Assembly (NCBI GenBank): GCA_963676835.2 | Contig: CAXXFF010000002.1 | Location: 1,376,001-1,440,000 of the forward strand | From: Marispirochaeta sp. | GTDB lineage: Bacteria; Spirochaetota; Spirochaetia; JC444; Marispirochaetaceae | Length of the DNA: 64,000 nt | Direction of reading: 5' to 3' | In this document: piece by piece, positions 28,150 through 53,601 of the stretch | How the letters are laid out: every line of letters begins with the position of its first letter | Position numbering within the stretch: position 1 is the first letter of the stretch | Notes under the pieces: model-generated | What the model was told of the DNA's origin: nothing | The model's database searches: none | What the model saw: only the letters and a program-made list of their open reading frames with translations | Program-made: the position numbers and the translations under genes

Positions 28150-29538
28150 CTACAAGGAATGAATCGGCCGTTCCCAGGCGGCCATGGCGGCTTCTTTAAC
28201 CGCTTCGGCCAGGCTCGGGTGGGCGTGGATGGTGCGTGCCAGATCTTCGGCACTGCCGCCGAACTCCATCAGCACCGCCGCTTCATGAATCAGCTCCGAT
28301 GCATGTTCTCCGGCTATATGCACCCCTAATACGGTATCATCCTTTTTACGGGTAAGAATCTTCACCATTCCTTCGTTGTTGCCTGCGGCTATTGCCCTTC
28401 CGTTACCGGAGAAGCGGAAAATACCTTTTTTGTACTCTATGCCTTCTTTTCTACACTGCTCCTCGGTCTTTCCAACCATGGCGGCTTCGGGATGGGTGTA
28501 GAGGGCTCCTGGAATAAGGGAGTAGTTTACCTTTCCATATTTACCTGCAAGCATTTCCACACAGGCTGCCGCCTCTTCGCTGGCCTTGTGGGCCAGCATG
28601 GGGCCTGCAATGCAGTCACCTACGGCAAAGATTCCCGCAGCACCGGTTTCGTATCGGTCTGAAACCGTAATACGGCCGTTTTCTGTTTCTATGCCCAGGG
28701 CTATGGTGTCGATTCCTTCCCAAACGGGTTTTCTTCCCGCCGCAACCAGCACCTTGTTGCCTCGAAATTCGCTGAAATTGCCGTCGGCTGCCTGGGCTTT
28801 CAAGTTGACTTCTGAATTACCGCTGTTGCCTTCGAGGATTTTTACTCCGCAGTGGAACTCGATTCCCTGTTTTTCCAGACTCTTCTGTACTGTTTTGGCA
28901 ATATCCCTGTCCCAGCCGGTAAGTATCTCCGGCATGGATTCGATAATCTGCACACAGGCGCCGAGTCTGGACCAGACACTCCCAAGTTCCAGCCCTATTA
29001 CCCCGGCTCCGACAATAAGCAGTCTTTCGGGAATTTCGCTGAATTCCAGGGCATCTGTGGAATCTACTACTGAAGTGTGATCAAAGGGCAGAAAGGGCAG
29101 TTCTGCAGGCCTGCTGCCGGTGGCAATGAGAATGGAGTCCGAGCGGTACTCTTCAGATCCGACTCTGACTATCCCGGGTGTGCTTACCTCGGCGCTGCCC
29201 CGAATAACATCAACCTTGTTTCCTTTCAGCAGGGAGGCAACTCCCCGGGTGAGGCTTCCTACAACCCGGTTCTTACGGCTTATCATGGCTTTGACATCAA
29301 TTGACGGGGGCGCGCAGACAATACCGTGGTCTGCTGCCTCCTTCTGAATCTGCCGGAAGAGGGCGGAGGAGCTTAAAAGGGCCTTGGAAGGAATACAGCC
29401 CACATTAAGGCAGGTTCCTCCCATGGTTGCCGCTTTCTCCACCAGCAGAACCTTCATTCCCAGCTGAGCAGCCCTGATGGCACCAACATAGCCTCCCGGT
29501 CCGGCTCCTATAACAATGAGGTTGTAGTTTGTGCTCAT
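28150..29538 (-). CDS. lpdA: Dihydrolipoyl dehydrogenase (E3)
   Basis: GAGPGGY, GGTCLNVGCIPSK, GAGVIGLE, MLAHKA and HAHPSLAE. Confidence 0.96.
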   Translation of the reverse strand: MSTNYNLIVIGAGPGGYVGAIRAAQLGMKVLLVEKAATMGGTCLNVGCIPSKALLSSSALFRQIQKEAADHGIVCAPPSIDVKAMISRKNRVVGSLTRGVASLLKGNKVDVIRGSAEVSTPGIVRVGSEEYRSDSILIATGSRPAELPFLPFDHTSVVDSTDALEFSEIPERLLIVGAGVIGLELGSVWSRLGACVQIIESMPEILTGWDRDIAKTVQKSLEKQGIEFHCGVKILEGNSGNSEVNLKAQAADGNFSEFRGNKVLVAAGRKPVWEGIDTIALGIETENGRITVSDRYETGAAGIFAVGDCIAGPMLAHKASEEAAACVEMLAGKYGKVNYSLIPGALYTHPEAAMVGKTEEQCRKEGIEYKKGIFRFSGNGRAIAAGNNEGMVKILTRKKDDTVLGVHIAGEHASELIHEAAVLMEFGGSAEDLARTIHAHPSLAEAVKEAAMAAWERPIHSL

Positions 29539-29540
29539 CG

Positions 29541-30713
29541 CTATAGTTCCAGCAGGAGCCGCTGGGGATTTTCCAGCTGCCGTTTTATGGATGTCAGAAA
29601 ACCAACAGCTTCTTTTCCGTCGATAATGCGGTGGTCGTAGGTAAGGGCAAGATACATCATGGGACGGATAACCACCTGATCGTTCTCGGCAACCGGACGC
29701 TTCTGTATGGTGTGCATTCCCAGTACTGCTGTCTGGGGCGGTGTGGGGATCGGCGTAGACAGGAGCGAGCCGAAGATGCCGCCGTTGGTTATGGTAAAGG
29801 TTCCTCCGGACATATCGTCCAGGGTGAGTTTCTTTTCCCGTGCTTTGTTTCCGAAGCCGGCAATAGCTCTTTCTATGTCTGCAAAGCCCATGGCTTCGGC
29901 CTGTTTCAGTACAGGAACCACCAGACCGCGATCGGTGGAAACCGCAATTCCCACGTTGCAGGTTTTATAGAGGATCATGTCCGTACCGTCGATGGACGAG
30001 TTTACCCGGGGAAAGTCCTTCAGGGCACGGCAGGCGGCCTTTACAAAAAAGGACATGAATCCGAGCTTTACCTTTTTTGAGGCAAGAAATTCCTCGCCCA
30101 GGCTTTTGCGGATTTCCATAACCGGTGCAAGATTCACCTCGTTGAAGGTGGTAAGGTGGGCGGATTCCCGTTTTGAGGCAACCAGATTTGCCGCTATGCT
30201 CCTGCGGATCCGGGACATGGGCTCCCGGGTGTATTCAGTACCGGTTTTTGCTTCGGTACTCTGTACTGCCGGTGCCGGGACATCCGGTGCGGGCGGCGGT
30301 GCCGGTGCAGATAGAGAATTTTCTTCAGGTATGGTCTCTTCAACATGGGCGCACATATCCGCCTTGGTTACCCTGCCGTCCTTTCCGCTTCCGGAGATCG
30401 TATCAGGATCAACACCGGTCTCCGCTGCCATTCTCCGGACTGCCGGTGACTGATGTCCCGGTTTACTGTCCAGGGCTTCTGCAGGTGTTATGCTGCCTAT
30501 GACGGTACCCGGTGTAACTTCAGTATCCCGGGGTATGAGAATTTTCAGAATACCTTCAGCCGGCGCCGGCACCGCCATGGTCGCTTTGTCGCTTTCCAGT
30601 TCGCAGAGCTCGGCCCCTTCCGTTACGTTGCTTCCGTCTTCAAAAAGCCAGCTGCTCAAGTAGGCGGTGGAAATGGATTCTCCCATTTCCGGAACGGATA
30701 TATCAATTTTCAT
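29541..30713 (-). CDS. sucB: Dihydrolipoyllysine succinyltransferase (E2o)
   Basis: Lipoyl domain ELESDKA; E3-binding [36 protein letters not shown]. Confidence 0.95.
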
Positions 30714-33394
30714 TTGGCGTGCTCCTTGAATGCCCCGGTAAGTATTGCTTCGTGTTCAATGAGGTGCCGGGAGTAGCGTCCGGCTGCGGGGCTTGCTTTT
30801 GCCGGTCTGCCGGCATACTCAGTCTTAAGGCCGCTGATTTCTTCCAGATATTCACGGATAAAAGTCCAGGCTCCCTTGTTTCGGGGCTCTTCCTGTACCC
30901 AGCGGATAGTGTGCAGCTTCGGCATCTGTGCAAGTATTCCTCTCAGCCCCTCTGCGTCAAAAGGATAGAGCTGTTCAATTCGCAGCAGGGAGTAGTCCGT
31001 GTCATTGATTTCTGCAAGCCTGTCTGCGAGATCGTGATAGATTTTTCCACTGCAGGCGAGCAGTATGCCCGCATTGCTGTTGCCGTCGTGTATCAGCGGT
31101 TTAAATCCGGGATTCTTGAAATCATCCAGGGGAGAGACCGCCCGCTTGTCCCGGAGAAGGCTCTTGGGGGTCATGACTATCAAAGGTTTACGCCAGTCCG
31201 CTTTTGCCTGCCGACGCAGGAGGTGAAAGTACTGGGCCGGGGTACTGCAGTTGCAGACCTGCATGTTTTCCTCTGCACAGAGCTGAAGAAAGCGCTCCAG
31301 GTAGCCCGAGGAGTGTTCCGGCCCCTGTCCTTCAAAGCCGTGGGGCAGGAGCAGCACCAGGCCGGATGTCTGCTGCCACTTTGTTTCCGATGCAGCAATA
31401 TACTGATCTATAATAACCTGGGCTTCATTTACAAAGTCACCAAACTGGGCCTCCCAGAGTACCAGCACATTGGGCCTTGTAAGGGAGTAGCCGAACTCGA
31501 AACCCAGTACAGCGAATTCCGAAAGGGGGCTGTCGTATACCCGGAAAAACTCCTGGTCCGGGGCAATGTGCTGCAGGGGGTAATATGGCTCAGGCGCCTC
31601 TTCGGTATGGTTCCACCAGACTGCATGGCGCTGGCTGAAGGTTCCCCGGCCGGAATCCTCTCCTGAGAGCCGTACCGGACAGCCTTCGCTTACCAGAGAG
31701 GCAAAAGCAAGCTGCTCCGCTGTAGCCCAGTCTATGGCTGTTCCTTTTTTTATCATCTCCCGGCGGCCCTGAATAATTTTCATAAGTTTCCGGTTGAGGT
31801 TCAGGTCCTCCGGTACATCCGTAAGTCTTTCGCCCAGTTCCTTTAACCGCTTTTTGGCAAGCCCTGTTTTTGTTCCCCCGCTGTGAGTGTAGGGCTTCAG
31901 GGGAGTCTCAGGCTTAAAGGTTCCGCTGTTCTTATCTGCTTCTTTCAGGTACTCCCGGTACTCAGCAAGAAAAGAGTCCTGGTCTGCCTGAGGATAAATT
32001 TCCCGGTCTGATAAAATCTTGCCGTAGTGAGCATAGACGCCTTCGGCGGCTTTAATGCGGGAATACATTCCCGGATGGGTAAAGGTCGGCTCATCGGATT
32101 CGTTATGGCCGTGAACCCGGTAGCAGATAAGGTCGATAACCACATCGAATCCAAATTTCTGCCGGTATCTCAATGCAAGATCCATGGCACGTACAACCTG
32201 TTCCGGGTCGTAGCCGTTGACGTGAAATATCGGGACCGGCTGCCCTTTAGCCAGGCTGGTGGGAAAGAGGGTTGACCGGGAATCGGACCATGCCGTGGTA
32301 AAACCGATCTGATTGTTGACTACCAGATGGATAGTTCCTCCCGTGGTATAGCCTTTGAGTTTTGCAAGATTCAGGGTTTCCGCCACAATCCCCTGGCCGG
32401 AGAAGGCGGCATCACCGTGAATAAGCACGGGAATAACCTTCTTCCTGCATTTATCCTGGAGCCTGTTCTGGAATCCCCGTGCCTTTCCCTCTACAACGGG
32501 GTTTACTGATTCCAGATGGCTGGGGTTTGAGGCCAGATGCAGTACCATTTCCCCTTCGGGAAAGGATATGTGTGATTCGTAGCCCAGGTGGTATTTCACA
32601 TCGCCGGAGAGCATGTAATGCACCGGTTCGGGGGTGCTGCCGAAGGTTCCGAGGATTTCGTCCATGGGTTTCTGCATGGTGTGGGCAAGTACATTCAGTC
32701 TTCCCCGGTGACTCATTCCCAGAACAATTTCCTTTACACCCTTTCCGGCAGCTGAGCGGGCCAGAAAATTGAGGGCCGGAATAAGGGCCTCCGCTCCTTC
32801 CAGGGAGAAGCGCTTCTGACCGAGATACTGGCTGCCCAGGAAGCGTTCGAACTCCTTGGCCCGGATAAGATCCTGCTGAATGCGAATCTGTTCTTCCCGG
32901 CAGGGCTCCCACAGCTCAGTGCGGTGTTCCAGCTTCTCCATCAACCATGTCCGCATGCTTCTGTTCTGGATGTGCATAAACTCACTGCCCATGGTGGAAC
33001 AGTAGATACTGTGGAAGGTCTCTATCAGCTCTTTCAGGGTCTTTACGGGACTTTCCAGAAACTGTCCGCCGTAGAATGTATCATTCAGGTCGGCTTCTGT
33101 GAGGCCGTAGGTACCCGGATTCAGATGGCGCTGTACCCCGGTTTCCACCACCTGTATATGGCGCATGGCACGGGTGAGGTAGCCTTTCAGGGGGTTCACA
33201 TCCGCATACAGGTAGCCTGCATGGCGGAATGCTGAAATAAGACGGTTAACCCTGCTCTGGTTCTGCTGCAGTGAATTCTGTGTCTCCGGGGTGATGTTTT
33301 CCGGAAAACAGGTTTCCATTCCGGGGATGTCCGATTCGGAAAGGACGCCCTCCAGGTATGCAATATTTTCCGGCGCAATGGTCTGGTTTTTCAC
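30710..33394 (-). CDS. sucA: 2-oxoglutarate dehydrogenase E1
   Basis: [34 protein letters not shown], ThDP motif [17 protein letters not shown] and GQGPEHSS. Confidence 0.95.
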
Positions 33395-33415: not shown

Positions 33416-34291
33416 TTAGCTTTGAGAAAGTCTGCTGCGGAGCAGGGCGGGTATCTCTTCGGGAAGATCGGCAACATCAATCCCCGCAGCTTTGAGGGCG
33501 GCGATTTTCGCCTCGGGAGTTCCCTGTCCGCCGGAGATGATGGCTCCCGCGTGACCCATCCGTTTTCCCGGAGGGGCGGTTCTTCCGCAGATAAAGGCTG
33601 TTACCGGCTTTTTCATATTGGCGGCGATATACCCGGCGGCTTTCTCTTCCGCATCTCCGCCGATTTCACCGATAAGCACAACACCCTTTGTGACCGGATC
33701 CTTCTCGAACATTTCAAGAAGTTCGATATAGCTCGTCCCGATAACCGGATCTCCTCCTATGCCGATACAGGTGGACTGACCCAGTCCGGCCTGAGTCAGG
33801 CTGTATACCACTTCATAGGTAAGGGTTCCCGACCGGGAAATAACACCGATACTTCCGGGAGAGTGAATCTTTGCAGGCATAATCCCTGCCTTGCAGAGAC
33901 CCGGGCTTATCAGTCCTGGACAGTTGGGCCCGATAAGACGGGCACCTTTTTTCTGCACATAGTAATAGGTTTCAAGCATCTCATTTACCGGCACCCCTTC
34001 GGTGATGCAGATAATAAGGGGAATTCCCGACTCCGCTGCAGCCCGGATAGCGGAGCTTGCGAATCTGGCGGGAACAAAGATAACCGAAACATCAGCACTG
34101 GTGGCCCTCCGGCACTCGATTACACTGTCGAATACGGGTATTCCGTGAACGCTCTGTCCTCCCTTGCCGGGGGTTACACCGCCGACAATGTTGGTGCCGT
34201 CCTTTTTCATGGTAAGGGCATGAAAGGATCCGTCCCTTCCGGTGATGCCCTGGATCATTACTCTGCTTTTCTGGTTGATTAGAATGCTCAT
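33416..34291 (-). CDS. sucD: Succinate--CoA ligase alpha subunit
   Basis: [29 protein letters not shown] and RMGHAGA (phospho-His). Confidence 0.96.
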
Positions 34292-35460
34292 GCTGTACCT
34301 TTCTTCTTTCCTGATGTTGCAGGACCGGCGGATTGACTGAGTTCTACAGCTTTTTTAACCGCCGTACTGAGGGAATCCTCCGCTGCAAGTCCTGCGGAGG
34401 AGAGGATTTCCCGCCCTTCCTGGTCGTTGGTACCGATAAGACGAATTACCATGGGAACTGTCAGATCAATCTTTTTACGGGCTTCTATAATTCCTTTGGC
34501 TATGTCGTCGCAGCGGGTTATCCCGCCGAAGATATTGATCAGAATGGCGTTAACCTTCGGATTTCTCATTAAAATGGTAAGGGCGGTAACTACCTTCTCC
34601 GGGTTGGAGCTGCCGCCCACGTCCAGGAAGTTGGCGGGGGATGCGCCGTAATACTTGATAATGTCCATGGTTGCCATGGCAAGGCCCGCGCCGTTTACAA
34701 TACAGCCGATTTCACCGTCCATGGAGACAAAACTCAGTCCTGCCTCTTTCGCTTCTGTCTCATCCGCAGAGTATTCTTCAGGATTTCTTAGATCAAGCAG
34801 TTCGGGAATTATCTCGGCAGCGTTGTCGTCGATGGTTATTTTACCGTCCAGGGCAGAGAGAGATGAGTCTGCAAGGCAGGCCAGAGGATTGATCTCAACC
34901 AGGGAGCAGCCTTTATCGAGATAGAGGCAGTAGATTCGCCGGATAATGTCCACTCCCTGCATGGTCAGGATGTCGCTCTGGAAAATCTCTCTGCAGGTAT
35001 GCGTCAGTTCTTCTTCATCCAGCCCTTTGTGCGGGTAGACGGGAACTTTCAGTATCTTCTCCGGTTCTTTTTCCGCAAGTTCCTCGATGTCCATCCCTCC
35101 CGCTGCGGAGAGCATCAGGGTGAGACAGTTTGCGCCCCTGTCCAGAGTCAGGCCGAGGTAGTATTCCTGAACAATTTCGGCCTTGGGCACTACGAGCAGC
35201 CGTTCGACGGTCTCTCCTTTAATATTCATTCCGATGATTGTTTCAGCGGCTTCCTCTGCCGTTTCCGGTGAGTCCGCGGTTTTTACTCCCCCCGCCTTGC
35301 CTCTGCCGCCGGTGAGAACCTGAGCCTTGATTACTACAGAACCGCCAAGGGCCTTCGCTGCAGAGACTGCCTCGGCGGGGGTTGCGGCAACAATCCCTTC
35401 CGGGTGGGGGATAAGGTAGCCCGCAAACAGTTCGCGGGCCTGATATTCATGGATCTTCAT
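34288..35460 (-). CDS. sucC: Succinate--CoA ligase beta subunit
   Basis: [42 protein letters not shown] and [10 protein letters not shown]. Confidence 0.96.
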
Positions 35461-35527: not shown

Positions 35528-36826
35528 TTACTGCCGCAGCCGCGGCGGCTTGTTCAGCATTACCGCAAGAATTGATTTATCCGTCTGCTCCATGCCGTTA
35601 TGGCTGATCTGCCGTGCGTATTCTATGGTGTCTTCCGATTTGTCACCGATAATGCCCGACTCGCTTCCCACTGTTTTATCGGAAATTGCAAGTTTGGCAC
35701 TCATTGCCGCCGATTCCACACAGGAGTAGATCTTGAGGGCACAGGTCTTCTTTGCGCCGTCGCAGATAACTCCCATAAGGTTGGCGAACATAATGTTTAT
35801 AGTGTTTTCCACCCGGTCCAGAGAGCCTGTAATTAGATAGACATAGGCGCAGGCGGTGCCGATGGCGGCGGTAAATGCCCCGCAAAGGGCGGAAAGGCGT
35901 CCCTTGTGGTAGGTAAGGTAGAGGGCCACCATATGACTCAGGGCCAGTGCCTTGATTGTTGCGGTTTTATCGCTTTTGAGAAAATCGGCCATTACCTGTA
36001 CCGGTACTGTTGCGGTAATTCCCTGGTTTCCGCTGCCGGAGTTGATTACCACCGGCAGGGGGCAGCCGGACATCCGCGCGTCGGAGGCGGCAGAAGCAAG
36101 GACCGCGCCGTACTGGAATGCTTCTTCCAGGGTGGTGATATTACTGCTGTCCGTGGTGTTCATTGTTTTTCCCACGCTCAGGCCGTATGACTCTCCAATG
36201 GAGTGTTCTGCAATAGCCATGTTTGTCTCTGAAACATTCAGCAGGAAGCTGCCTTCGTTTTCAGTCAGGTTGTCTACAAAGGCAAGGATATCCTGAACTG
36301 TCCAGCTCTCCGGATATACCCCTTCTTCGTCGGCATCGAGACCGTTTATATCCTGCTTTAGAAGAATCTCGCCGTTTTTAACCTTCTCCACCACCATATC
36401 GTGCTCTCCGGCAATGGTTATTCTTGCACTTTCTTCTCCGGAGGTAAGGGTTGCGGAGATATAGACCGGCGGAACATCTGCTGCAAGTTCCAGGCTTACC
36501 GGATGGGCTTCTTTAAAGGAAAGTATTTTATCTGCAGTGTTTTCCGGCAGGGTTGAAAGAATGTTCAGACCCATGGAGGAGTCCCCGAAAAGGACGCCAA
36601 GTAAAACGGAGGTATCTGTGCCGGTAAGGCTGCTGTTTGGTATTCCAACACCCATTACATTTTTAATTATATCTCTGCTGGCAAGAATTGCTACAGAATC
36701 GGGCTCTGCTCCGAGGAGATCCCGGGCAAGTGCGCCGGTTAGAGCTGCGGCTGCAGGCTCGGTGCATCCCATGGCTGTCTTCAGCTCCTTCTTCAGGAGT
36801 GAAAGGTATGTGTTGTGCTTGTTCAT
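35528..36826 (-). CDS. cyuA: L-cysteine desulfidase (CyuA/YhaM, serine-dehydratase-alpha-like Fe-S family)
   Basis: GCTEPAA, KNVMGVGIP, DARMSG, INSGSGNQG, RLSALCG and ICDGAKKTCALK. The ATG at 36826 is preferred over the 36889 start. Confidence 0.85.
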   Translation of the reverse strand: MNKHNTYLSLLKKELKTAMGCTEPAAAALTGALARDLLGAEPDSVAILASRDIIKNVMGVGIPNSSLTGTDTSVLLGVLFGDSSMGLNILSTLPENTADKILSFKEAHPVSLELAADVPPVYISATLTSGEESARITIAGEHDMVVEKVKNGEILLKQDINGLDADEEGVYPESWTVQDILAFVDNLTENEGSFLLNVSETNMAIAEHSIGESYGLSVGKTMNTTDSSNITTLEEAFQYGAVLASAASDARMSGCPLPVVINSGSGNQGITATVPVQVMADFLKSDKTATIKALALSHMVALYLTYHKGRLSALCGAFTAAIGTACAYVYLITGSLDRVENTINIMFANLMGVICDGAKKTCALKIYSCVESAAMSAKLAISDKTVGSESGIIGDKSEDTIEYARQISHNGMEQTDKSILAVMLNKPPRLRQ

Positions 36827-36850
36827 GAAGCGGAGACTAACACGCGAAAA

Positions 36851-36987
36851 ATTGGATGTCCAGTATTTTATTAAAAAAATATTGAGCAATCAACAAAAAT
36901 TGTTGAGGCAGTATTGCACTGATTGAAAAAATAATATAAATTGCCGAGAGATCTTCAATAATGGTAAAATTATGTTGAGGATTCGAT
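36851..36987. promoter_or_regulatory. Divergent promoter region with three palindromic operator-like sites
   Basis: ATTGGATGTCCAGT (36851), ATTGAGCAATCAAC (36881), GTTGAGGATTCGAT (36974). Promoter candidates: TGGACA-17-TAGTCT and TTGATT-17-TAAAAT on -, TTGCAC-17-TAAATT on +. Confidence 0.6.
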
Positions 36988-43988: not shown

Positions 43989-44028
43989 AAATATTTATCG
44001 ATTTTACTGAAAGATAATAAGGGGTGCT

Positions 44029-44924: not shown

Positions 44925-46448
44925 ATGAAACGGTTTCTTTTATTCAGCATGATTTTTCTTCTCGTATTTGTTGCTGCAGGCTGTGGTTCTAAAAAGGAAT
45001 CAGCAGAGGCTGCGGCTCCGGCGGTCAAGGAAATTACCTACGCCAATGCGGCGGATATTTCCACCCTGGATCCCCGTAACGCCACCGGTACCGATACCGC
45101 GGCTATTCTTGCACACATGTTCAGCAGTCTGTTAAAGACAGACAAGGACATGCAGGTTGTTCCCGATCTGGCGGCGTCCTATGAAAATATCGACTCCACC
45201 ACCTGGAAATTCACCCTCAAAGACAATGTTACCTTCCACGACGGTTCCAAACTTACCAGCGCCGACGTAAAGTACACCTTTGACACCATTGCCGACAAGG
45301 ATAAGAAGTACAGACTTGCCTCAGACTTCTCTTTTATCAGTATCGAAGTTATTGATGACTACAGCTTCTTTCTTAAAACGGCAGAGCCCTTTGCCGACCT
45401 TCAGATCCGCCTGAACTATGTAAAGATTCTTCCCAAGGCCTACCTTGAAGAAGTGGGTGATGAAGAGTTTGCCAAAAACCCCATTGGAAGCGGTCCTTTC
45501 AAGTATGTGGAGCGCCTGAAGGATGAGCGGGTTGTAATCGAAGCCTATGACGGCTACTTCGGCGGCAAACCTGCCCTGGACAAGATTACCTACAAGATTA
45601 TTCCCGAAGCAGCTTCCCGTATTGCTGCACTCGAAGCGGGTGAAGTAGACATTATTGGAAAGGTTTCCACCAGCCAGGTTCCCCGGCTTCAGTCTCTGGA
45701 TAATATTGAGGTTGTGGGCAATCCCACCACCCGGGTTATCTTCCTCGGCATGAACAGCATTGCAGAAGGTCCCCTGCAGGATGTTCGGGTACGTAAGGCA
45801 CTTAACTATGCGGTAGACCGGGATCTTATTATTGAAGGTGTTCTTGACGGTTACGGCAACAAGCTTGCATCCATCTCCAACCCCGAATTCTTCGGCTATG
45901 ATGCCTCAATTGCAGGTTTTGAGTATAACCCTGAAAAAGCAAAAGCCCTGCTTGCTGAAGCCGGCTATGCAGACGGACTCGACCTGGATTTCTCTGTTAC
46001 TACCTCCTACCTGAACGGTACTGATGTTGCCCAGGCGATTGCCGCACAGCTTGCCGAGGTTGGTGTTAATGTCAATCTCCAGCAGATCGATGCAGGGCAG
46101 CAGCGTGAGCAGATTATCAACAAGACCATATCCGGCCTCTATATGTTCGGAATCGGCGGTCCCTACTGTACCATCGACCTTGTTGCCAAGCTCTCTTTCT
46201 CCACCGGTGAGCGTTATTCAACCTACTCAAACCCCGAGTTTGACGCCCTGCGCAAGAAAGCGGCGGCAACCATTGATGACGCGGAACGGGCAGCTCTTCT
46301 CTCTGATCTTCAGCAGATGGCTATCGATAACGCTGCTGGTCTCTTCCTGTATCAGCAGTACGGACTTCTGGCCCAGAACAGCCGTGTCCAGAACTGGTCA
46401 CCCAGAATCGATGAAATGATCGTTCTGATTGACGCAGACGTAAAATAA
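44925..46448 (+). CDS. Peptide/nickel (family 5, GsiB/DppA-like) ABC substrate-binding lipoprotein
   Basis: Lipobox AAGC; TLDP; VVPDLA; FHDGSKLTSADVKYT; PIGSGPF; DVRVRKALNYAVDR. Confidence 0.93.
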   Translation: MKRFLLFSMIFLLVFVAAGCGSKKESAEAAAPAVKEITYANAADISTLDPRNATGTDTAAILAHMFSSLLKTDKDMQVVPDLAASYENIDSTTWKFTLKDNVTFHDGSKLTSADVKYTFDTIADKDKKYRLASDFSFISIEVIDDYSFFLKTAEPFADLQIRLNYVKILPKAYLEEVGDEEFAKNPIGSGPFKYVERLKDERVVIEAYDGYFGGKPALDKITYKIIPEAASRIAALEAGEVDIIGKVSTSQVPRLQSLDNIEVVGNPTTRVIFLGMNSIAEGPLQDVRVRKALNYAVDRDLIIEGVLDGYGNKLASISNPEFFGYDASIAGFEYNPEKAKALLAEAGYADGLDLDFSVTTSYLNGTDVAQAIAAQLAEVGVNVNLQQIDAGQQREQIINKTISGLYMFGIGGPYCTIDLVAKLSFSTGERYSTYSNPEFDALRKKAAATIDDAERAALLSDLQQMAIDNAAGLFLYQQYGLLAQNSRVQNWSPRIDEMIVLIDADVK

Positions 46449-46459
46449 ACTTCTTTATA

Positions 46460-46492
46460 AAGCCGGGGAGGCATATTCTGCCTCCCCCGCTT
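46460..46492 (+). other. GC-rich stem-loop after the SBP gene (mRNA stabiliser or partial terminator)
   Basis: GGGGAGGCA-TATTC-TGCCTCCCC with only a weak U-tract. Confidence 0.55.
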
Positions 46493-46505
46493 CTGGAATT
46501 AACTT

Positions 46506-47426
46506 ATGCGGAAATATCTTCTTAACAGATTTCTCCAGTCTCTTATTGCTATTTTAGGCATTACCATGGTGGTCTTTTTTGTCCTCCATCTGGCCGGTGA
46601 TCCGGTTGATCTGCTGGTTCCTCCCAGCGCATCCATCGAGGATATAGAACGTCTTCGCGCAGAGATGGGCTTTGATGATCCCGTAATGGTTCAGTATGCC
46701 AGGTTCATGGCTGATATGTTCCGCGGCGACCTGGGAATGTCCTACAACTATAACGAACCGGCTCTTACTCTGGTCCTGGAACGTCTACCCGCAACCTTGA
46801 GTCTGACCGGTGCGGCACTCTTTATTTCCCTTTTGTTCGGCATTCCCGCTGGGGTTATCTCTGCGGTAAAACGGAATACCAGAACCGACGCCGTGATCCG
46901 CTCTCTCGCGCTTCTGGGGCAGTGTCTGCCTGCATTCTGGCTGGGAATTATTATGATCCTGCTTTTTTCCGTGAAACTGCACTGGCTCCCGACTTCGGGC
47001 AATGAATCCTGGAAGTCCATAATTATGCCGGCCTTTACCCTCGGAGTATATACAGCGGCGACGGTAACCCGTCTGCTGCGATCAAATATGATTGAAGTTT
47101 TGAGTAAGGAATATATTGATACTGCCAAGGCAAAGGGGCTTGCACCGCGTATGGTGATAATGAAGCATGCCCTTAAAAATGCCATCAGCACCGTACTCAC
47201 CGTGCTTGGTATGCAGGTGGCCTTTCTGCTGGGTGGTTCGGTAATAACCGAGACTGTTTTCGGCTGGCCCGGTATCGGCAGACTTGCGGTTCAGTCCATT
47301 ACCAACAGCGATTTTAATGTTGTACTGGTAATTGTTATTCTCATGGCTTCCGGTTTTGTGCTGATCAACTTCATTGTTGACCTTCTTTACAGCATTATCA
47401 ATCCCAGAGTGAAGCTTCACGGTTAG
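46506..47426 (+). CDS. Peptide ABC permease (DppB-like)
   Basis: GDPV, GDLGMS, ERLPAT, PAFWLG, TAKAKGL and ETVFGWPGIG. Confidence 0.93.
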   Translation: MRKYLLNRFLQSLIAILGITMVVFFVLHLAGDPVDLLVPPSASIEDIERLRAEMGFDDPVMVQYARFMADMFRGDLGMSYNYNEPALTLVLERLPATLSLTGAALFISLLFGIPAGVISAVKRNTRTDAVIRSLALLGQCLPAFWLGIIMILLFSVKLHWLPTSGNESWKSIIMPAFTLGVYTAATVTRLLRSNMIEVLSKEYIDTAKAKGLAPRMVIMKHALKNAISTVLTVLGMQVAFLLGGSVITETVFGWPGIGRLAVQSITNSDFNVVLVIVILMASGFVLINFIVDLLYSIINPRVKLHG

Positions 47427-47437
47427 GACGGTAGTAT

Positions 47438-48274
47438 ATGTTACGCAGTTTAATTGACAGTAAAACCGGTCTTATCGGGGTGCTTATACTCATCGGTGTG
47501 GTACTGATGGCCCTGTTCGGAAGTTTCCTCACTCCCCATGATCCGGTAAAGCAGGATATCCTCAACAAGCTCCAGCCCCCGGCATGGAGCGGAGGAACGG
47601 TGGAACATCTGTTCGGCACCGACCAGCTGGGCCGGGATATTCTCTCCCGTATTATCCTTGGAAGCCGGATAACTCTTATTGTTGCCTTTTTCGGTACCAT
47701 TGTTGCAGGAATTGCCGGTGTAATTATCGGCTCCATTGCCGGGTATTATGGTAAATGGGTGGACGCAGTAATTATGCGTATTGTGGATATACAGCTCTCC
47801 TTTCCCTTTATTCTGCTTGCCATATTTATTGCGGCAGTTCTGGGGCCGGGTCTTGAGAATATTATTCTTATAGCCGGTATTAGCGGCTGGGTGCGCTATG
47901 CCAGGCTTGTGCGGGGAGAGATCCTTGCAATCAAGGAGATGGAGTATATCGAGGCGATCCGTTCTGTTGGCGGCTCGGATATGAGGATCATCTTCAAGCA
48001 TATTCTTCCCAATGTGATGAGCCCGATTATTGTAATCGCCACCCTGGAGATGGCCAGGATTATCCTGATGGAATCCGCCCTGAGCTTTCTCGGTCTGGGC
48101 GTTCCCATAGAGATTCCCACCTGGGGCCGTATGCTGGCCGAGAGCCGCACCTATATGGTGACTGCCCCTGCCATGGCCATAATTCCCGGAGTCTTTATAA
48201 CCCTGTCGGTCCTGGGGGTAAACCTTCTGGGTGACTGGCTGCGGGATTATCTTGATCCCAAACTGAATGTATAG
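47438..48274 (+). CDS. Peptide ABC permease (DppC-like)
   Basis: HLFGTDQLGRDILSR, ARLVRG, HILPN and ESALSFLGLG. Confidence 0.93.
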   Translation: MLRSLIDSKTGLIGVLILIGVVLMALFGSFLTPHDPVKQDILNKLQPPAWSGGTVEHLFGTDQLGRDILSRIILGSRITLIVAFFGTIVAGIAGVIIGSIAGYYGKWVDAVIMRIVDIQLSFPFILLAIFIAAVLGPGLENIILIAGISGWVRYARLVRGEILAIKEMEYIEAIRSVGGSDMRIIFKHILPNVMSPIIVIATLEMARIILMESALSFLGLGVPIEIPTWGRMLAESRTYMVTAPAMAIIPGVFITLSVLGVNLLGDWLRDYLDPKLNV

Positions 48275-48283
48275 GAGGGACCC

Positions 48284-49294
48284 ATGAAGGAGTCCTTGCT
48301 TAAGATAGATAAACTTAATGTTACCTTTGATACCCCCAAAGGGCTGGCCAAGGCGGTTAACGGAATCAGCTTTGATCTTGCGAAAGGGGAGAAGCTCGGT
48401 CTGGTCGGCGAGTCGGGTTCCGGAAAGAGTGTAACCGCCAAGAGTATAATCCGCCTGCTGCAGTCGCCCCCGGCTTCCATTGAAGGTCAAATAGCCCTTG
48501 CCGGGGAGGAGCTGCTTACCAAGCCGGAAGCAGAAATGCGTAAATACCGGGGTAATAAAATCTCCATGATATTTCAGGAACCCATGGTAAGCCTGAATCC
48601 TCTCTTTACTGTTGGGAATCAGCTTATCGAACCCTTAAAGCTGCATAAGCAGTTAGGTAAAAAGGACGCTGAAGCAAAGGCTGTAGAGATGCTCCGTCAT
48701 GTAGGCATTCCTTCTCCGGAGCAGCGGATGAAGCAGTATCCCTTCGAGCTTTCCGGCGGTATGCGTCAGCGGATTATGATTGCCATGGCTCTGTTGTGTG
48801 AACCCCGGGTACTGATTGCCGATGAGCCGACAACGGCTCTGGATGTTACCATCCAGGCCCAGATTATCGATCTTCTCAACCGTATAAACCGGGAGTTTGG
48901 TACTGCCATTATTCTGATAACCCACGATCTGGGGGTTGTTGCCGAAATGGTGGATACCGTTGCGGTAATGTACGGAGGCTATATTATGGAAAAGGCTCCG
49001 GTGGTAGAACTCTATGAGAAACCTCTCCATCCCTATACTCAGGGTCTGTTGAATTCTGTTCCCAGCATGAACGATGACCGGGAAGAGCTTAAAACCATTG
49101 AGGGTCAGGTAAACAGTATTTACAATCAGCCTGTTGGCTGTGCCTTTCATCCCCGCTGCCCCCTGGCACATGAGCGCTGCCGTACTGAGGTTCCACCGGA
49201 TGTTTTGAAAGACGGCCGGTTGGTTAAATGCTGGAATTATGCAGCTGAAGACAAACGGGATGCAGACGATGCAAACAAAGGAAAGGGGGAATAG
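48284..49294 (+). CDS. Peptide ABC ATPase (DppD-like)
   Basis: GESGSGKS, YPFELSGGMRQR, ADEPTTALD, HPYT and a C-terminal Cys cluster. Confidence 0.94.
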   Translation: MKESLLKIDKLNVTFDTPKGLAKAVNGISFDLAKGEKLGLVGESGSGKSVTAKSIIRLLQSPPASIEGQIALAGEELLTKPEAEMRKYRGNKISMIFQEPMVSLNPLFTVGNQLIEPLKLHKQLGKKDAEAKAVEMLRHVGIPSPEQRMKQYPFELSGGMRQRIMIAMALLCEPRVLIADEPTTALDVTIQAQIIDLLNRINREFGTAIILITHDLGVVAEMVDTVAVMYGGYIMEKAPVVELYEKPLHPYTQGLLNSVPSMNDDREELKTIEGQVNSIYNQPVGCAFHPRCPLAHERCRTEVPPDVLKDGRLVKCWNYAAEDKRDADDANKGKGE

Positions 49295-49295
49295 C

Positions 49296-50264
49296 ATGGC
49301 GAATCAGACACAGGATCTGCTGGTTCTTGAAAATGTAAAAAAATATTTCCCCGTACACGGTAAACCGTCGGAGTTTGTAAAGGCCGTTGATGATGTCAGC
49401 ATCCGGGTTAAGCAGGGCTCTGTTCTCGGTGTAGTCGGAGAGTCGGGCTGCGGGAAATCGACTCTGGCGCGGCTTATAATGCGGCTTATTGAGCCGACAT
49501 CAGGAAGTGTCTTCTTTGAGGGTAAAGAGCTGACCGCGCTGCCCCAGCGGGACCTCCGGAAAATCAGGCGGAATATCCAGATTATCTTTCAGGATCCCTA
49601 TGCTTCACTGAATCCCCGGCAGCGGATCGGCAATATGCTCAAGGAGCCCTTGAAGATTCACCGTATTGCTGCGGGTGAAGCAGCTGACCGGCGTGCCCGG
49701 GAGCTGGTGGAAATGGTCGGAATGAACGCTGACAGTCTGGACAAGTTTCCCCACGAGTTTTCCGGCGGCCAGCGGCAGCGTCTTTGTATTGCCCGTGCCC
49801 TGGCGGTGGAGCCGAAACTGCTTATCTGCGATGAGTGTGTCTCCGCCCTGGATGTTTCCATTCAGGCGCAGATTGTAAACCTGCTGAAAGACCTTCAGAA
49901 AAAGCTCAATCTGACCATGATATTTGTTTCCCACGACCTCCGGGTTGTGAAACATATCTCCAGCGATGTTGCTGTCATGTATCTGGGGAGAATTCTTGAA
50001 ACAGCTCCCAAGCATGAACTCTTCGGCAATACTGCTCATCCCTATTCGAAGGTCCTTCTGGGGGCGGTGCCTGTTTGTGATCCCACGGTGAAAAAGGAAC
50101 GCATTTTTCTGCAGGGAGATCTTCCCAGTCCGATTCATCAGCCTTCGGGATGCAAATTTCACACCCGCTGTTTTAAGGTGCAGGATGCCTGCAAGGGGCA
50201 GGAGCCGCTGCTTGATATGATTGCCAAAGATCACTATTGCCGTTGTCCCTACTGGGAGAACTGA
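49296..50264 (+). CDS. Peptide ABC ATPase (DppF-like)
   Basis: GESGCGKST, FPHEFSGGQRQR, DECVSALDVS and GCKFHTRC; ATG at 49296 follows a GGGGG RBS. Confidence 0.93.
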   Translation: MANQTQDLLVLENVKKYFPVHGKPSEFVKAVDDVSIRVKQGSVLGVVGESGCGKSTLARLIMRLIEPTSGSVFFEGKELTALPQRDLRKIRRNIQIIFQDPYASLNPRQRIGNMLKEPLKIHRIAAGEAADRRARELVEMVGMNADSLDKFPHEFSGGQRQRLCIARALAVEPKLLICDECVSALDVSIQAQIVNLLKDLQKKLNLTMIFVSHDLRVVKHISSDVAVMYLGRILETAPKHELFGNTAHPYSKVLLGAVPVCDPTVKKERIFLQGDLPSPIHQPSGCKFHTRCFKVQDACKGQEPLLDMIAKDHYCRCPYWEN

Positions 50265-50285: not shown

Positions 50286-51320
50286 ATGACCAAAACAGAA
50301 CGCATTAAAACAGCCATAGAGGGGGGAATCCCCGACAAGGTTCCCTATTCAATCTGGTCCCATGTACCCGGGATCGATATGATTCCTGAGAAGATCTCGG
50401 ATTTTACCGTTGATTTTTATAAAACCTACAATGTGGATTTTATAAAGACCATGAACAACGGTATGTACTGTATTGAGGATTTCGGCTGCACCGTTGATTA
50501 TTCGGAGATTGAAAAAGGCGGGGTTGCTAAACTTGTCTCTTCCCCGGTTAATTCAATTGCCGATTATGCAAAGATCAAGCGGGTGGGACTTGACTCAGGG
50601 GCTCTGGCCCGGGAGCTGGAATACCTCAGGCTGCTGATGGAAAAGCTCGACGGTGAAGATGTTCCGGTTGTCTTTACCATTTTCAGCCCCATTACTACGG
50701 CGGACAAGCTTGCCGGGGGGAAGCTTGTGGAACATATCCGCAGCGGCGAAACTTCTCTGATAAAACAGGCCCTTGCAGAAATTACGGCTACCACGAAAGC
50801 ACTGGTTAAAAAGGTTACAACCAGCGGCGCCGCTGGAGTTTTCTTTGCCTCCCAGATGAGCAGCTATGATGTAATGACTGAAGAGGAGTATGAAGAGTTC
50901 GGCAAGCCCTACGATATTGAGGTTCTAAAGGCTTCCGAAGGCTGGTTCAATACCATTCATGCCCACGGGGATAATATTATTTTCAATATTCTCAAGGACT
51001 ATCCCGTCGAAGTTTTCAACTGGCATATCGGAGAGACCCTGCCCGACCTTGAAGAAGGCCTGGACAGGACCGGTAAATGTATCATGGGGGGTATTCAGCG
51101 GATGGATATTACCAACGGCAGGCGAAACGAGATTGCGAACCAGATTTACCATGCCATTAAGAGTACCCATGGGCGGAACATTATCCTTACCCCGGGCTGT
51201 GTTATCCGCTATCCTCTGGAGCCGTCCACTCTTGGCTACATTTCCAGAATCAAGCAGAGTGTTGAATCCTCTCTCGGTTTGGGTACAGCGGCTCATCAAG
51301 GAGCAGGAGGAAAGGCATGA
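50286..51320 (+). CDS. UroD/MtaA-fold (URO-D-like) protein, paralog 2
   Basis: DKVPYSIWSH, TIFSP, FGKPYDIEVL, HAHG, MGGI and LTPGCVI; no RQAGR motif. Confidence 0.8.
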   Translation: MTKTERIKTAIEGGIPDKVPYSIWSHVPGIDMIPEKISDFTVDFYKTYNVDFIKTMNNGMYCIEDFGCTVDYSEIEKGGVAKLVSSPVNSIADYAKIKRVGLDSGALARELEYLRLLMEKLDGEDVPVVFTIFSPITTADKLAGGKLVEHIRSGETSLIKQALAEITATTKALVKKVTTSGAAGVFFASQMSSYDVMTEEEYEEFGKPYDIEVLKASEGWFNTIHAHGDNIIFNILKDYPVEVFNWHIGETLPDLEEGLDRTGKCIMGGIQRMDITNGRRNEIANQIYHAIKSTHGRNIILTPGCVIRYPLEPSTLGYISRIKQSVESSLGLGTAAHQGAGGKA

Positions 51321-52387
51321 CAGAAACGCCGGTTATAGAACTTAGGGGATCCGAGTATGAACAGGGAGTGCAGCATGGGCGTCAGCTTAAAGAGATAATT
51401 CTCTACAATCTCGAACGGACCCGGGAAAAGCTCATCGACACCCGCTGTGATATGCAGCGCTACGAGGCATTTTTACAGAAGAATGCCACCTTTTATAAAG
51501 AGAAGCATCCTGAACTTTTTGAAGAGATGAAGGGTATTGCAGAGGGCTCCGAACTGCCCCTGGATGATATTCTTATGCTGAATATTCCTGCCTATTTTAT
51601 GACCGATTTCTTTGCACAGGAATGCACCATGATTATGGCCCGGGGCAAAGCGACAGCCGACGGCTGCACCTATGTCATCAAGAACCGGGATATGAGCATG
51701 GACATTCAGCAGCGCTCTTTTCGCCGGGTTTATCCCGACGGGCTGGTTATTGTTGAGGTAAACGGAGCAGGAATTATTACCTATCCTGCCGGGGGCTTAA
51801 ATAACCGCGGGCTGACGGTAACCACCACCGGCTTCTGGTCAAAGAAGGCCGCTCCGGTGCTGGATGATGTTGAATCCCGCCATATTTTTATGAACGTACA
51901 GCTTCTGCTGAAAAACTGCTCCACCGTGGATGAGATGCTGGAGTATATAAAGCGGGAGCCCTGCATGAACGGTCTCAACATAATTGCCGCGGATAAAGAG
52001 AAAGCTTGCGTTGTGGAGATGACCCGTGACCGCCAGGTTATTCAGTGGGATGACGGCACAGGTATTCTTTACCGGTCCAATCACTACTTTTCAGACGAAC
52101 TGAAAGAGCTGAATCCGGAACCGGAACAGTACCCATCCACCTACAATCGCTCCCGGCTGGTAAAAAGGATGCTTGATGAGCGCTACGGAAGAGTCCGCTT
52201 TCAGGACCTTTTCCGCATCCTTTCCGACCATACCGATGCTCCCAACTGCCTCTGCCGGCATCCTGAAGGGGAAGCAAAGGGAAAAACCGTTTCCACCAGC
52301 CTCTTTGTGCTGGAGGATAATGAGGCATGGACCACCCTGGGATACCCCTGTATGAGTCTTCGCTACGCAACACTTGAGGAGAAATAA
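51317..52387 (+). CDS. C45 family Ntn-hydrolase (acyl-CoA:6-aminopenicillanate acyltransferase-like)
   Basis: GVQHG, EEMKGIAEG, autoprocessing site E-C-T near residue 103, KNRD, GLNNRGL, SNHY and ILSDH. Confidence 0.87.
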   Translation: MTETPVIELRGSEYEQGVQHGRQLKEIILYNLERTREKLIDTRCDMQRYEAFLQKNATFYKEKHPELFEEMKGIAEGSELPLDDILMLNIPAYFMTDFFAQECTMIMARGKATADGCTYVIKNRDMSMDIQQRSFRRVYPDGLVIVEVNGAGIITYPAGGLNNRGLTVTTTGFWSKKAAPVLDDVESRHIFMNVQLLLKNCSTVDEMLEYIKREPCMNGLNIIAADKEKACVVEMTRDRQVIQWDDGTGILYRSNHYFSDELKELNPEPEQYPSTYNRSRLVKRMLDERYGRVRFQDLFRILSDHTDAPNCLCRHPEGEAKGKTVSTSLFVLEDNEAWTTLGYPCMSLRYATLEEK

Positions 52388-53601
52388 TGAACAGCCCTGT
52401 CCATGAATATGTACAGCAACGACTTTCAAGACTGAAAGAGTCCATGATAGAGAAGGGGATTGATGCTGCATTTATCATCAAACCCGAGAATGTTTTTTAC
52501 TACAGCAATTTCAATCCCGTTCTGAACAGCCACCCGGCGATTATGCTGGTAAAGCTGGAAGGGACGGCCCAGGGGGAATCCACCCTTTTAATTCACGCCA
52601 TCCGCCACGATCATGCCCGGGATGAAGGTGCCATTGACAATATAGCCCTCTACGGCAAATGGGGGAGCCATAAAACCCTTTCCATGGATCCTGTTGAGGC
52701 GGCATCAAAGATTCTCGGCAAGGTGGAGACTCTTGGTATTGAAGAGGAGAATATCTCCTACCGTTATTTTACCAGACTCACTCAAGCACTGGGCTGTTCT
52801 AAAACAGTAGACATTTCCGGTCTCATAAAGAGTGAGAAACTGATCAAGGATGACCATGAAATCAGCTGCATGCGCATTGCTGCAAAGCTGGTTGATATCG
52901 GGGTCGAGACGGCCATTGTAGAGATTGCCCGGGGGGCCAACGAAATAGAAGCCTGTACCGAAGGGCAGTATGCCATGCGCAAGCTCTGGCAGACCCGCTA
53001 TCCGGAGCACGAAATCAGCGGCTTCGGAACCTCAGAAGGCGGAATGATCGATAGTCTCGATATGTGGTCCCTCAGTAATGAGAGGATTGCCTACGGCTGC
53101 GACTGTCCCCGGGCCTATACGCCGAAGAAGGGGGATGTGGTGCTGCCCATGGCCTGGGCCAAGGTGAGCGGCTATCATGCGGAAAATGAGCGTACCGTAA
53201 TTATGGACAGTCTCTCTGAAGAGCGGGACAGAGCCTACCGGGCCATGCTTGCAGCCCGGGCAGAGGTTTTTTCCATTCTGAAACCCGGTACTCTCTATGA
53301 AGATCTGTACAATGCCGCCGCGGCGGTATTTACCGAGTACGGTTTTGAGGAAATTCTTCCCGGAAGAATCGGCCATGGCATCGGGAATTCCGGTCATGAC
53401 TATCCTTCCCTTGCCAGGGGAAATACCATTCCGCTGCAGAAAAACATGGCCCTTACTGTTGAGCCCGGGCTTATGACCGATACCCTTGGCGGTATGCGCC
53501 ATTCCGACTCGGTTATCATTACCGAAGAGGGCTACGAATCGCTTACGGAACTGCCCAACGGGACTATCCGCATTGCCGACGGTACGGTAGAGTATCTGTA
53601 A
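52387..53601 (+). CDS. M24 (pita-bread) family hydrolase, Xaa-Pro peptidase/creatinase-like with altered metal ligands
   Basis: Creatinase_N-like start (NVFYYSNF); IKDDHEI; GYHAENERT; GHGIG; VEPG; RHSD. Confidence 0.85.
   Translation: MNSPVHEYVQQRLSRLKESMIEKGIDAAFIIKPENVFYYSNFNPVLNSHPAIMLVKLEGTAQGESTLLIHAIRHDHARDEGAIDNIALYGKWGSHKTLSMDPVEAASKILGKVETLGIEEENISYRYFTRLTQALGCSKTVDISGLIKSEKLIKDDHEISCMRIAAKLVDIGVETAIVEIARGANEIEACTEGQYAMRKLWQTRYPEHEISGFGTSEGGMIDSLDMWSLSNERIAYGCDCPRAYTPKKGDVVLPMAWAKVSGYHAENERTVIMDSLSEERDRAYRAMLAARAEVFSILKPGTLYEDLYNAAAAVFTEYGFEEILPGRIGHGIGNSGHDYPSLARGNTIPLQKNMALTVEPGLMTDTLGGMRHSDSVIITEEGYESLTELPNGTIRIADGTVEYL

Follow-up and report, generated by a model that had tools for sequence, protein, structure and literature searches.

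A genomic island of Marispirochaeta with two MtaA/UroD-fold enzymes and a cysteine desulfidase: a predicted unit for the anaerobic catabolism of a cysteine adduct

We analyzed a 64-kb stretch of a Marispirochaeta sp. genome (G000; the whole stretch is referred to as the window, and coordinates are window positions) that carries an island of catabolic genes containing two enzymes of the MtaA/UroD fold, designated Uro1 and Uro2, and a [4Fe-4S] L-cysteine desulfidase, CyuA. All 22 genes listed in an original prediction made from the sequence of the window were recovered at the expected position and strand, and open reading frame (ORF) checks and Pfam and NCBIfam searches returned the same families. 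The minus-strand unit has the order cyuA-sucC-sucD-sucA-sucB-lpdA: cyuA (35528..36889), sucC and sucD, encoding the beta and alpha subunits of succinate-CoA ligase (34288..35460 and 33416..34291), sucA, encoding 2-oxoglutarate dehydrogenase E1 (30710..33394), sucB, encoding the E2 succinyltransferase (29541..30713), and lpdA, encoding the E3 dihydrolipoyl dehydrogenase (28150..29538). The first plus-strand unit comprises uro1 (37012..38037; PF01208, E 1e-15), an M20D amidohydrolase of the HmrA/PM20D2-like type (38044..39294; TIGR01891 above cut-off), a metal-dependent amidohydrolase of the prolidase/carboxypeptidase/ochratoxinase group (39291..40469; PF01979), a TRAP transporter, dctPQM (40527..43294; PF03480, PF04290, and PF06808), and an ORF for a 93-residue PQ-loop-like membrane protein (43474..43755), which had no match in a Pfam search but scored 0.93-0.97 to PQ-loop/membrane clusters in the ESM Atlas. 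The second has the order rpiR-sbp-oppBCDF-uro2-C45-M24, with a regulator of the RpiR family (44029..44886; PF01418 and PF01380), a family-5 (Opp/Dpp-type) ABC importer consisting of a substrate-binding protein (SBP), two permeases, and two ATPases (44925..50264; PF00496, PF00528, and PF00005), uro2 (50286..51320; PF01208, E 2e-21), a C45 Ntn-hydrolase (51317..52387; NF040521 above cut-off), and a hydrolase of the M24 fold from the creatinase/DoeA-like branch (52387..53601; PF00557 and PF01321).

A second island with about 90% protein identity, L001, is present in a Marispirochaeta metagenome-assembled genome (G001/G1141), and the PQ-loop-like ORF is 85% conserved there. Six genomes of the genus were compared: two carry uro genes and three carry sucA. 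Three congeners that are at least 97% complete have neither uro genes nor sucA, and since these three join gntR-uxuA-dmsA to a homologue of the ORF at 56415 within 2 to 6 kb, the segment between about 27.7 and 56.4 kb is an insertion.

Uro1 and Uro2 share 27.7% identity, and their AlphaFold models have pLDDT values of 94.9 (Uro1) and 92.3 (Uro2). In Foldseek searches, the best match of Uro2 was MtaA (4AY7; TM 0.83, 18% identity), followed by UroD, while Uro1 matched UroD and MtaA at TM values of 0.76-0.80; the UroD barrel is common to both (TM 0.72-0.81 to UroD). A sequence search of the PDB with Uro1 returned nothing significant, and MtaA was the only match to a Uro2 profile. The motif H-x-C...C is the zinc motif of the MT2 methyltransferases MtaA and CmuA. 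Uro1 retains it as H240-x-C242...C322, which together with H29, K57, and H260 is invariant in 41 of 41 homologues; the equivalent in Uro2 is H225-x-H227...C305, invariant with W24, H26, and K54 in all 36 orthologues. A wider family alignment of 130 rows (Uro2 and 129 full-length representatives of 150 listed) conserved W24 in 126, H26 in 121, K54 in 124, H225 in 123, and C305 in 116, and position 227 was His in 95 and Cys in 24. Uro1 and Uro2 belong to an uncharacterized MtaA/UroD-fold family that has, judged by the alignment to MtaA, a probable thiol-binding zinc site. Assignment as haem decarboxylases was rejected: RQAGR, the N-terminal substrate-binding motif of HemE/UROD, is absent from both proteins, which have W-x-H in its place, identity is 12-16%, and no tetrapyrrole genes lie nearby. 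Nor are they partnered MT2 methyltransferases of the MtaA/CmuA families: they score 57 and 64 bits against cut-offs of 244 and 235, and no corrinoid protein was seen in the loci. The family to which they belong is large, with 457 clusters at 50% identity (E up to 1e-30), and its members are named "uroporphyrinogen decarboxylase" in databases. Its distribution is patchy: members occurred in 7 of 399 genomes of Clostridia, in 4 of the 351 from a single order, and in 3 of 401 from the phylum of the window, the centre genome being included each time. Orthologues of Uro1 were confined to 1 of the 399 Clostridia genomes, the centre genome itself, and a contig search yielded three loci, so the genomic context of Uro1 rests on three outside loci.

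CyuA, whose probable start is the ATG at 36826 rather than the TTG at 36889, matches a single family, PF03313, and solved L-cysteine desulfidase structures (PDB 9HE0/9FSL) at E 2e-22. The cluster and active-site residues given for MmCyuA in PMC12647591 (Cys23, Glu25, Arg223, Asn239, Cys287, Cys329, Cys336, and Lys339) are all kept in the window protein (C42, E44, R272, N288, C336, C376, C383, and K386), and in a set of 25 nonredundant homologues each is shared by 90% or more. By these residues and the match to solved desulfidases, the window protein is a predicted L-cysteine desulfidase.

The association of cyuA with uro2 extends well beyond the genus. We scanned metagenomes for uro2 and took the best 80 of 333 confirmed loci together with three genome loci; these 83 loci represent 34 lineages at 90% identity. 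A cyuA gene lay within 8.5 kb of uro2 in 22 of the 34 and in 15 of the 17 that had at least 4.5 kb of sequence on both sides. Because the five genomes checked hold zero to two cyuA-like genes each, chance proximity would be expected in about 1-2% of cases, a figure that does not amount to a formal test since the lineages are related. The smallest module, found in the gut, consists of a TTT importer, uro2, LysR, and cyuA, and Uro2 alone would therefore link an imported polycarboxylate to the substrate of CyuA. In Gemmobacter, Microvirga, and Polaromonas, the place of CyuA is taken by a nonhomologous, Cds1-like pyridoxal phosphate-dependent cysteine desulfhydrase (562 bits against a cut-off of 600 for the Gemmobacter copy), adjoined by RidA in the first two, which form the alphaproteobacterial sister clade of Uro2 (support 100/99). 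Around Uro1-type and more distant homologues, CyuA or Cds1 was nearby at 11 of 23 loci; of the other 12, one had methionine-type ABC genes, two a thiazoline (ATC) hydrolase, and one a SufS-like gene, two were on contigs that were too short, and six had neither. The frequency of cyuA, together with the Cds1-like substitute in three proteobacterial relatives, makes cysteine very probably the released product. The original prediction had proposed that the cluster works as a single unit on a cysteine conjugate, that a UroD-like enzyme frees the cysteine, and that homologous clusters should be linked to cysteine or sulfur genes; the neighbourhood counts support each of these, and the first also gains from the recurrence, in other phyla, of the order Opp-uro2-C45-M24(-cyuA/rpiR). 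This order is seen as sbp-oppBCDF-uro2-C45-M24 in another spirochaete and as oppCDF-uro2-C45-M24-cyuA, with rpiR, at locus L058. Across the 34 lineages, the genes found near uro2 were LysR (21), M24 (16), TTT importer (14), AbgT (10), C45 (7), family-5 SBP (6), opine dehydrogenase (4), and RpiR (3), with homologues of the last at 42-44% identity.

The sequences and their context give the island four amide or lactam hydrolases. The M20D protein resembles YxeP at only E 6e-11, against E 1e-55 for 3RAM, and the structure closest to the amidohydrolase encoded at 39291..40469 is 2QS8, an Xaa-Pro dipeptidase (E 3e-41), with 3MTW and 4C5Y among its other matches. In the C45 protein, Cys103 occupies the nucleophile position, the QEC motif is present in six of six nonredundant homologues, and no plasmid homologue was found at E 1e-20. 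M24 metallopeptidases of the Xaa-Pro peptidase type bind their metals through the ligands D, D, H, E, and E. Aligned to prolidases, the island protein has M255, E266, H330, E359, and S373 at these positions, and its subfamily has a YGCDC motif of its own; the M24 amide hydrolase of the original prediction thus keeps its fold but lacks the usual metal-binding aspartates. Of the importers, the family-5 system scored far below the equivalog cut-offs of the Gsi glutathione importer (GsiB, 180 against 594; GsiC, 276 against 463; GsiD, 253 against 484), and neither DctP nor the family-5 SBP has a close liganded structure from which a ligand could be read.

The palindrome that the original prediction placed in all three promoters was confirmed in part. 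Two of the units are divergent, so there are two promoter-bearing intergenic regions, and TCAACA-N5-TGTTGA, a candidate RpiR operator, is perfect only in the divergent region (36890..36906), its sole perfect occurrence in the 4.43-Mb genome. The remaining copies in the island have three to four mismatches in 12, seven sites elsewhere in the genome have one mismatch, and 148 sites genome-wide have two or fewer; in L001, the perfect site has lost its right arm and keeps only the left one. What recurs is the half-site CAACAAA, a motif picked post hoc, with four copies in the two regions against 0.19 expected from shuffles, three of them (0.13 expected) in the rpiR promoter region (43858..44000); three of the four, including two of these three, are kept in L001. 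Upstream of clostridial rpiR and opp genes, no palindrome with two or fewer mismatches was found, and CAACA/TGTTG half-sites precede rpiR at L048 and L050 but not at L101 and L103. An operator common to both regions is plausible, as is coregulation of the units by RpiR, which probably acts as a repressor of both promoter regions.

The suc and lpdA genes offer a clue to the carbon skeleton that accompanies cysteine. All five exceed NCBIfam equivalog cut-offs (lpdA, TIGR01350, 524 bits against 409; sucB, TIGR01347, 460 against 379; sucA, PRK09404, 1109 against 764; sucD, PRK05678, 427 against 336; sucC, PRK00696, 460 against 370). The sucA gene is the only copy in G000 (a single tblastn match), and sucD has a second copy, 52% identical, on contig C3. 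In four other spirochaetes, sucAB-lpdA belongs to a tricarboxylic acid (TCA) cycle operon with sdhAB and/or gltA and fumC; the congener G1143 has the operon sdhA-sdhB-sucC-sucD-sucA-sucB-lpdA-gltA-fumC with a convergent acnA (sdh, gltA, fumC, and acnA being named by eye from translations), and the island copies are 57-78% identical to those of G1143 (64% for sucA). The island retains the 2-oxoglutarate-to-succinate segment alone, sucCD-sucAB-lpdA, behind cyuA. Elsewhere in G000, fumC and acnA lie on another contig, IDH-like (isocitrate dehydrogenase) genes are found, and neither an sdhB nor a Kor (2-oxoacid:ferredoxin oxidoreductase) match was obtained. Since only this segment was kept, the module suits a substrate that yields 2-oxoglutarate and not one that yields fumarate or itaconate. 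The substrates named in the original prediction, succinated and itaconated cysteine, have accordingly lost ground: they would release fumarate or itaconate, yet it is the 2-oxoglutarate-oxidizing part that is retained, Pfam and NCBIfam identified no fumarase, Sdh/Frd, or itaconate enzymes among the island genes, and around the 83 uro2-orthologue loci, fumC homologues were found at none and an Frd/NadB-like flavoprotein at one.

The partners of the relatives are mostly carbonyl-processing enzymes and rarely enoate enzymes. Opine dehydrogenase, which joins an amino acid and a 2-oxo acid through an imine, occurs in six lineages, namely, the 4 of 34 noted above, Gemmobacter, and Microvirga. A paralogue with 28% identity is found with cyuA, a four-subunit Kor, and a CoA-transferase pair; semialdehyde-reductase-type dehydrogenases stand alongside the paralogues at L007 and L178, sugar kinases or dehydrogenases alongside those at L116, L138, L139, and L183, and ATC hydrolases alongside those at L111 and L139. 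An M24 homologue of 36% identity follows a cucumopine-synthase-like gene pair, with oxoprolinase and RpiR genes near; cucumopine is an adduct of histidine and 2-oxoglutarate. This last cluster is on a plasmid of Sinorhizobium medicae, a non-Agrobacterium host (L109, 10798-13188).

We propose that the island most likely serves the anaerobic catabolism of a cysteine adduct, the substrate itself being a prediction. That an adduct is imported, trimmed at its amide bonds, relieved of cysteine by the Uro enzymes, and finally desulfidated by CyuA is, from gene content and context, highly probable. The Opp and TRAP systems would bring in peptidic, N-acylated, or lactam forms, which the C45, M20, prolidase-like, and metal-free M24 enzymes would trim; a thiazolidine is a proline analogue, and the prolidase-like amidohydrolase and M24 protein would for that reason suit an N-acyl or lactam thiazolidine. 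The Uro enzymes would make the committed cut and free cysteine. The bond may be the N,S-ketal of a thiazolidine formed from cysteine and a carbonyl compound, an example being 2-(2-carboxyethyl)thiazolidine-2,4-dicarboxylate, the adduct of cysteine and 2-oxoglutarate (alpha-ketoglutarate; alphaKG-Cys), or its pyruvate analogue. Zinc would take the thiolate, the ring would open to an iminium, and water would free cysteine and the 2-oxo acid, perhaps with assistance from the conserved His and Lys of the family; CyuA would then convert cysteine to pyruvate, ammonia, and H2S, and SucAB-LpdA and SucCD would take 2-oxoglutarate to succinate, yielding NADH and ATP. The appeal of a thiazolidine is that one chemistry joins cysteine with 2-oxo acids, aldehydes, and sugars. 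Condensation of cysteine with alphaKG to a thiazolidine has been confirmed by nuclear magnetic resonance, and the product was found in activated macrophages beside fumarate and itaconate adducts, according to PMC13015485. Zinc-assisted hydrolysis of such a cysteine-2-oxo-acid thiazolidine, with oxidation of 2-oxoglutarate by SucAB-LpdA/SucCD, is the reading that we favor, tentatively, over a thioether lyase acting on succinate or itaconate adducts. More tentative still is the extension to the whole family, in which Uro1, Uro2, and their relatives would constitute a novel hydrolase class, zinc enzymes acting on thiazolidines (N,S-acetals/ketals), each branch paired with its own carbonyl-partner enzyme.

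Several observations weigh against thiazolidine hydrolysis. Thiazolidines of 2-oxo acids can open without an enzyme, and we know of no hydrolase in the MtaA/UroD fold. The Kor-linked 28% paralogue lacks the W-x-H and Lys of the family, and its Kor falls below 2-oxoglutarate-specific cut-offs. No sucA gene was found near uro2 in the 34 lineages outside the genus, so that the strongest 2-oxoglutarate clue comes from two closely related genomes, and in one of these, L001, the sucA frame (3762-6433) breaks in two at about residue 792, by sequencing error or a real break. Other conceivable sources of the 2-oxoglutarate are glutamyl residues and aconitate processed by housekeeping enzymes. The gene of a 31% paralogue (L182) and that of an FrdA/SdhA-like flavoprotein belong to one operon, and one orthologue, at L044, has an Frd/NadB-like gene 2 kb away; both fit an enoate product. 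Four other rhizobial M24 loci carry genes for a flavin monooxygenase, an AhpD-like protein, and a BisC-like S-oxide reductase, a set that recalls thioether catabolism.

The alternative that survives best, though we consider it less probable than hydrolysis and on balance doubtful, is that the Uro proteins are retro-Michael C-S lyases in which zinc expels the thiolate from S-(dicarboxyalkyl)- or S-(tricarboxyalkyl)cysteines in free, N-acyl, or glutathione form, with S-(2-succino)cysteine (2SC), itaconate-Cys, and aconitate-Cys as candidate substrates. Such a lyase would explain the link to cysteine equally well, the TTT importers of 14 lineages suit a polycarboxylate, the FrdA-like genes at L182 and L044 and the S-oxide-reductase-like genes that adjoin uro2 in G750, uroD in Polaromonas, and rhizobial M24 genes find a place in it, and a lyase route for N-acetyl-2SC is known (PMC9706529). 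If the substrate were the aconitate adduct, the housekeeping aconitase and isocitrate dehydrogenase, for which acnA and the IDH-like genes elsewhere in G000 are candidates, would deliver 2-oxoglutarate to SucAB. Against a lyase stand the 0 of 83 loci with fumC, the loss of sdhAB, gltA, and fumC from a module that kept sucAB, and the absence from the island of GNAT, YxeK, 2SL, and itaconate-pathway genes; it also leaves the opine dehydrogenases, ATC hydrolases, and sugar kinases of the relatives unexplained.

It is rather unlikely that the suc genes came along as passengers, in which case they would be a displaced TCA fragment behind cyuA that is uninformative on the substrate. The empty count for sucA in the other uro2 lineages and the split frame in L001 would suit a passenger, but the gap from the cyuA stop to sucC is 67 bp in the window and about 20 bp in L001, leaving no space for a separate promoter, no minus-strand terminator-like site was found in the junction, and the three nearly complete island-less congeners have no sucA at all. 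We regard as less likely again a route that starts from a cysteine opine [N-(carboxyalkyl)cysteine], the lactam of this opine, or cyclized deaminated glutathione (dGSH), with M24 or oxoprolinase opening the lactam, opine dehydrogenase oxidizing the amine, and Uro acting on an intermediate other than a simple thiazolidine or, after CyuA, on a mercapto-acid with release of H2S. Opine dehydrogenase and M24 do occur together in three lineages, the Microvirga uroD gene is adjoined by both oxoprolinase and opine dehydrogenase, a cucumopine-synthase-like gene adjoins an M24 homologue, and a nitrilase-family gene adjoins one orthologue, yet with 160 bits against a cut-off of 500 for the dGSH amidase model; we judged this Nit1-like link, at L044, to be weak, as it concerns one locus and a gene on the opposite strand. 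The island, however, contains no opine dehydrogenase, a search of G000 at E 1e-15 returned none either, and a redox step is not required in the minimal TTT-uro2-cyuA modules. Finally, the MtaA fold match and the H-x-C...C of Uro1 would suit orphan MT2-type methyl or alkyl transferases that methylate or demethylate a thiol together with a corrinoid protein whose gene lies elsewhere, but this is very improbable given scores far below the MtaA/CmuA cut-offs, the H-x-H of Uro2, the absence of DxHxxG from the island proteins, and the absence of a B12-binding domain from the island and the scanned neighbours, the rest of the genome not having been searched.

Some loci of the relatives merit separate mention. 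At L138, L139, L116, and L183, a distant UroD-like gene is accompanied by a Liv-type ABC importer, by a sugar kinase or dehydrogenase, and by a SufS-like, ATC-hydrolase, or cyuA gene; these loci are candidate cysteine-sugar adduct pathways. A cluster spanning L104 (1-19200) and L119 (11178-14399) on G002:C11 encodes a UGSC-family protein, thioredoxin, TrxB, a UroD-like paralogue, a four-subunit 2-oxoacid:ferredoxin oxidoreductase, CyuA, a CoA-transferase pair, a dehydrogenase resembling isocitrate and isopropylmalate dehydrogenases (IDH/IPMDH-like), TAXI-TRAP, and TTT; it is possibly a reductive variant. On the rhizobial plasmids of L164, L165, L166, and L110, the recurring genes are LysR, flavin monooxygenase, Opp, a YGCDC-related M24, a BisC-like reductase, and AhpD/CMD, with RidA and a Cds1-like enzyme in addition at L165, and the cluster looks like an aerobic, monooxygenase-based counterpart of the island pathway. 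At the left edge of the inserted block, the dmsA-like gene (25431-27656, plus strand), which encodes a DmsA/YnfE-like molybdoenzyme and follows gntR-uxuA, is core in the genus and was ruled out as an island member, as gntR-uxuA-dmsA is found in the three island-less congeners; DmsA-like reductases also adjoin uro2 in G750, the Polaromonas uroD gene, and the rhizobial M24 clusters, where an S-oxide repair step is possible. A truncated ORF of the RhuM family (27643-28095, plus strand; 150 residues) between dmsA and lpdA is missing at the matching place in L001 and is therefore a later insertion, and about 170 bp between dctM and the PQ-loop-like ORF (43295-43470), with a hairpin of 8-bp arms at 43367-43387, is also missing there. 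Dual-specificity phosphatase-like and patatin/Omp85-like genes at 53612-56476 fall inside the variable block and have no evident link to the pathway. Outside the island, an ORF for a coiled-coil-rich, membrane-anchored protein of 789 residues (18224-20593, minus strand) lies beside an adenylate-cyclase-like gene and is conserved in G001.

The proposal gives a testable function to a large, misannotated enzyme family, would add catabolic C-S cleavage to the reactions of the MtaA/MetE/UroD fold, and identifies a potential microbial sink for nonenzymatic cysteine adducts, the breakdown of which is mostly unknown. If its extension to the whole family is correct, adducts that form spontaneously from cysteine and 2-oxo acids, aldehydes, or sugars nourish anaerobes of gut and sediment as well as some aerobes, and the alphaKG-Cys of inflamed macrophages would be one such adduct. 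Since CyuA is the last step of the module in many gut Clostridia, the pathway would give the gut an additional, unrecognized source of hydrogen sulfide, fed by adducts from the diet or the host.

We found no description of this gene set in the open-access literature, in agreement with the original prediction, in which it was not recognized as a described pathway, and we regard the island as a real and widespread variant of cysteine-adduct catabolism with a new enzyme family. The systems that it most resembles each share a part of it. HemE/UROD (PF01208) has the same barrel and has given its name to the homologues in databases; the Uro proteins are set apart by the sequence differences described above and by a probable metal site. 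Closest in fold is the methylcobalamin:coenzyme M methyltransferase MtaA (4AY7/4AY8; TM 0.79-0.83), which has His and Cys positions for a thiol-binding zinc, but Uro differs in its low identity, the H-x-H of Uro2, the additional W-x-H and Lys, the lack of a corrinoid partner in the loci, and a catabolic context. The Agrobacterium opine catabolic regions (agropine and cucumopine) likewise have a family-5 ABC importer, a creatinase-like M24 protein, and lactam opening, and adducts of an amino acid with 2-oxoglutarate recur in the loci of the relatives; to our knowledge, an MtaA-fold enzyme is not part of known opine pathways, and the island has a sulfur link and no plant-tumour context. The Bacillus subtilis yxe/scm pathway for 2SC and its 2SL variant (PMC9706529) also combine adduct import, C-S cleavage, M20-type N-deacylation, and recovery of cysteine. 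A yxe/scm locus is defined in that source by the clustering of at least three of YxeK (or 2SL), YxeL, YxeMNO, YxeP, and YxeQ; among the island genes there is a distant M20 but no GNAT acetylase, luciferase-like monooxygenase (YxeK), lyase (2SL), or polar amino acid ABC importer (YxeMNO). In the island, the cutter would instead be of the MtaA/UroD fold, cysteine would be degraded, by CyuA or in relatives by Cds1, rather than salvaged, and the coproduct module is a 2-oxoglutarate dehydrogenase. With the Escherichia coli cyuPA cysteine fermentation operon and MmCyuA (PMC12647591), the island shares a desulfidase in which every catalytic and cluster residue is retained and the pairing of importer and desulfidase for anaerobic energy use; it would differ in importing a conjugate in place of free cysteine and in adding cleavage, trimming, and the oxidation of 2-oxoglutarate.

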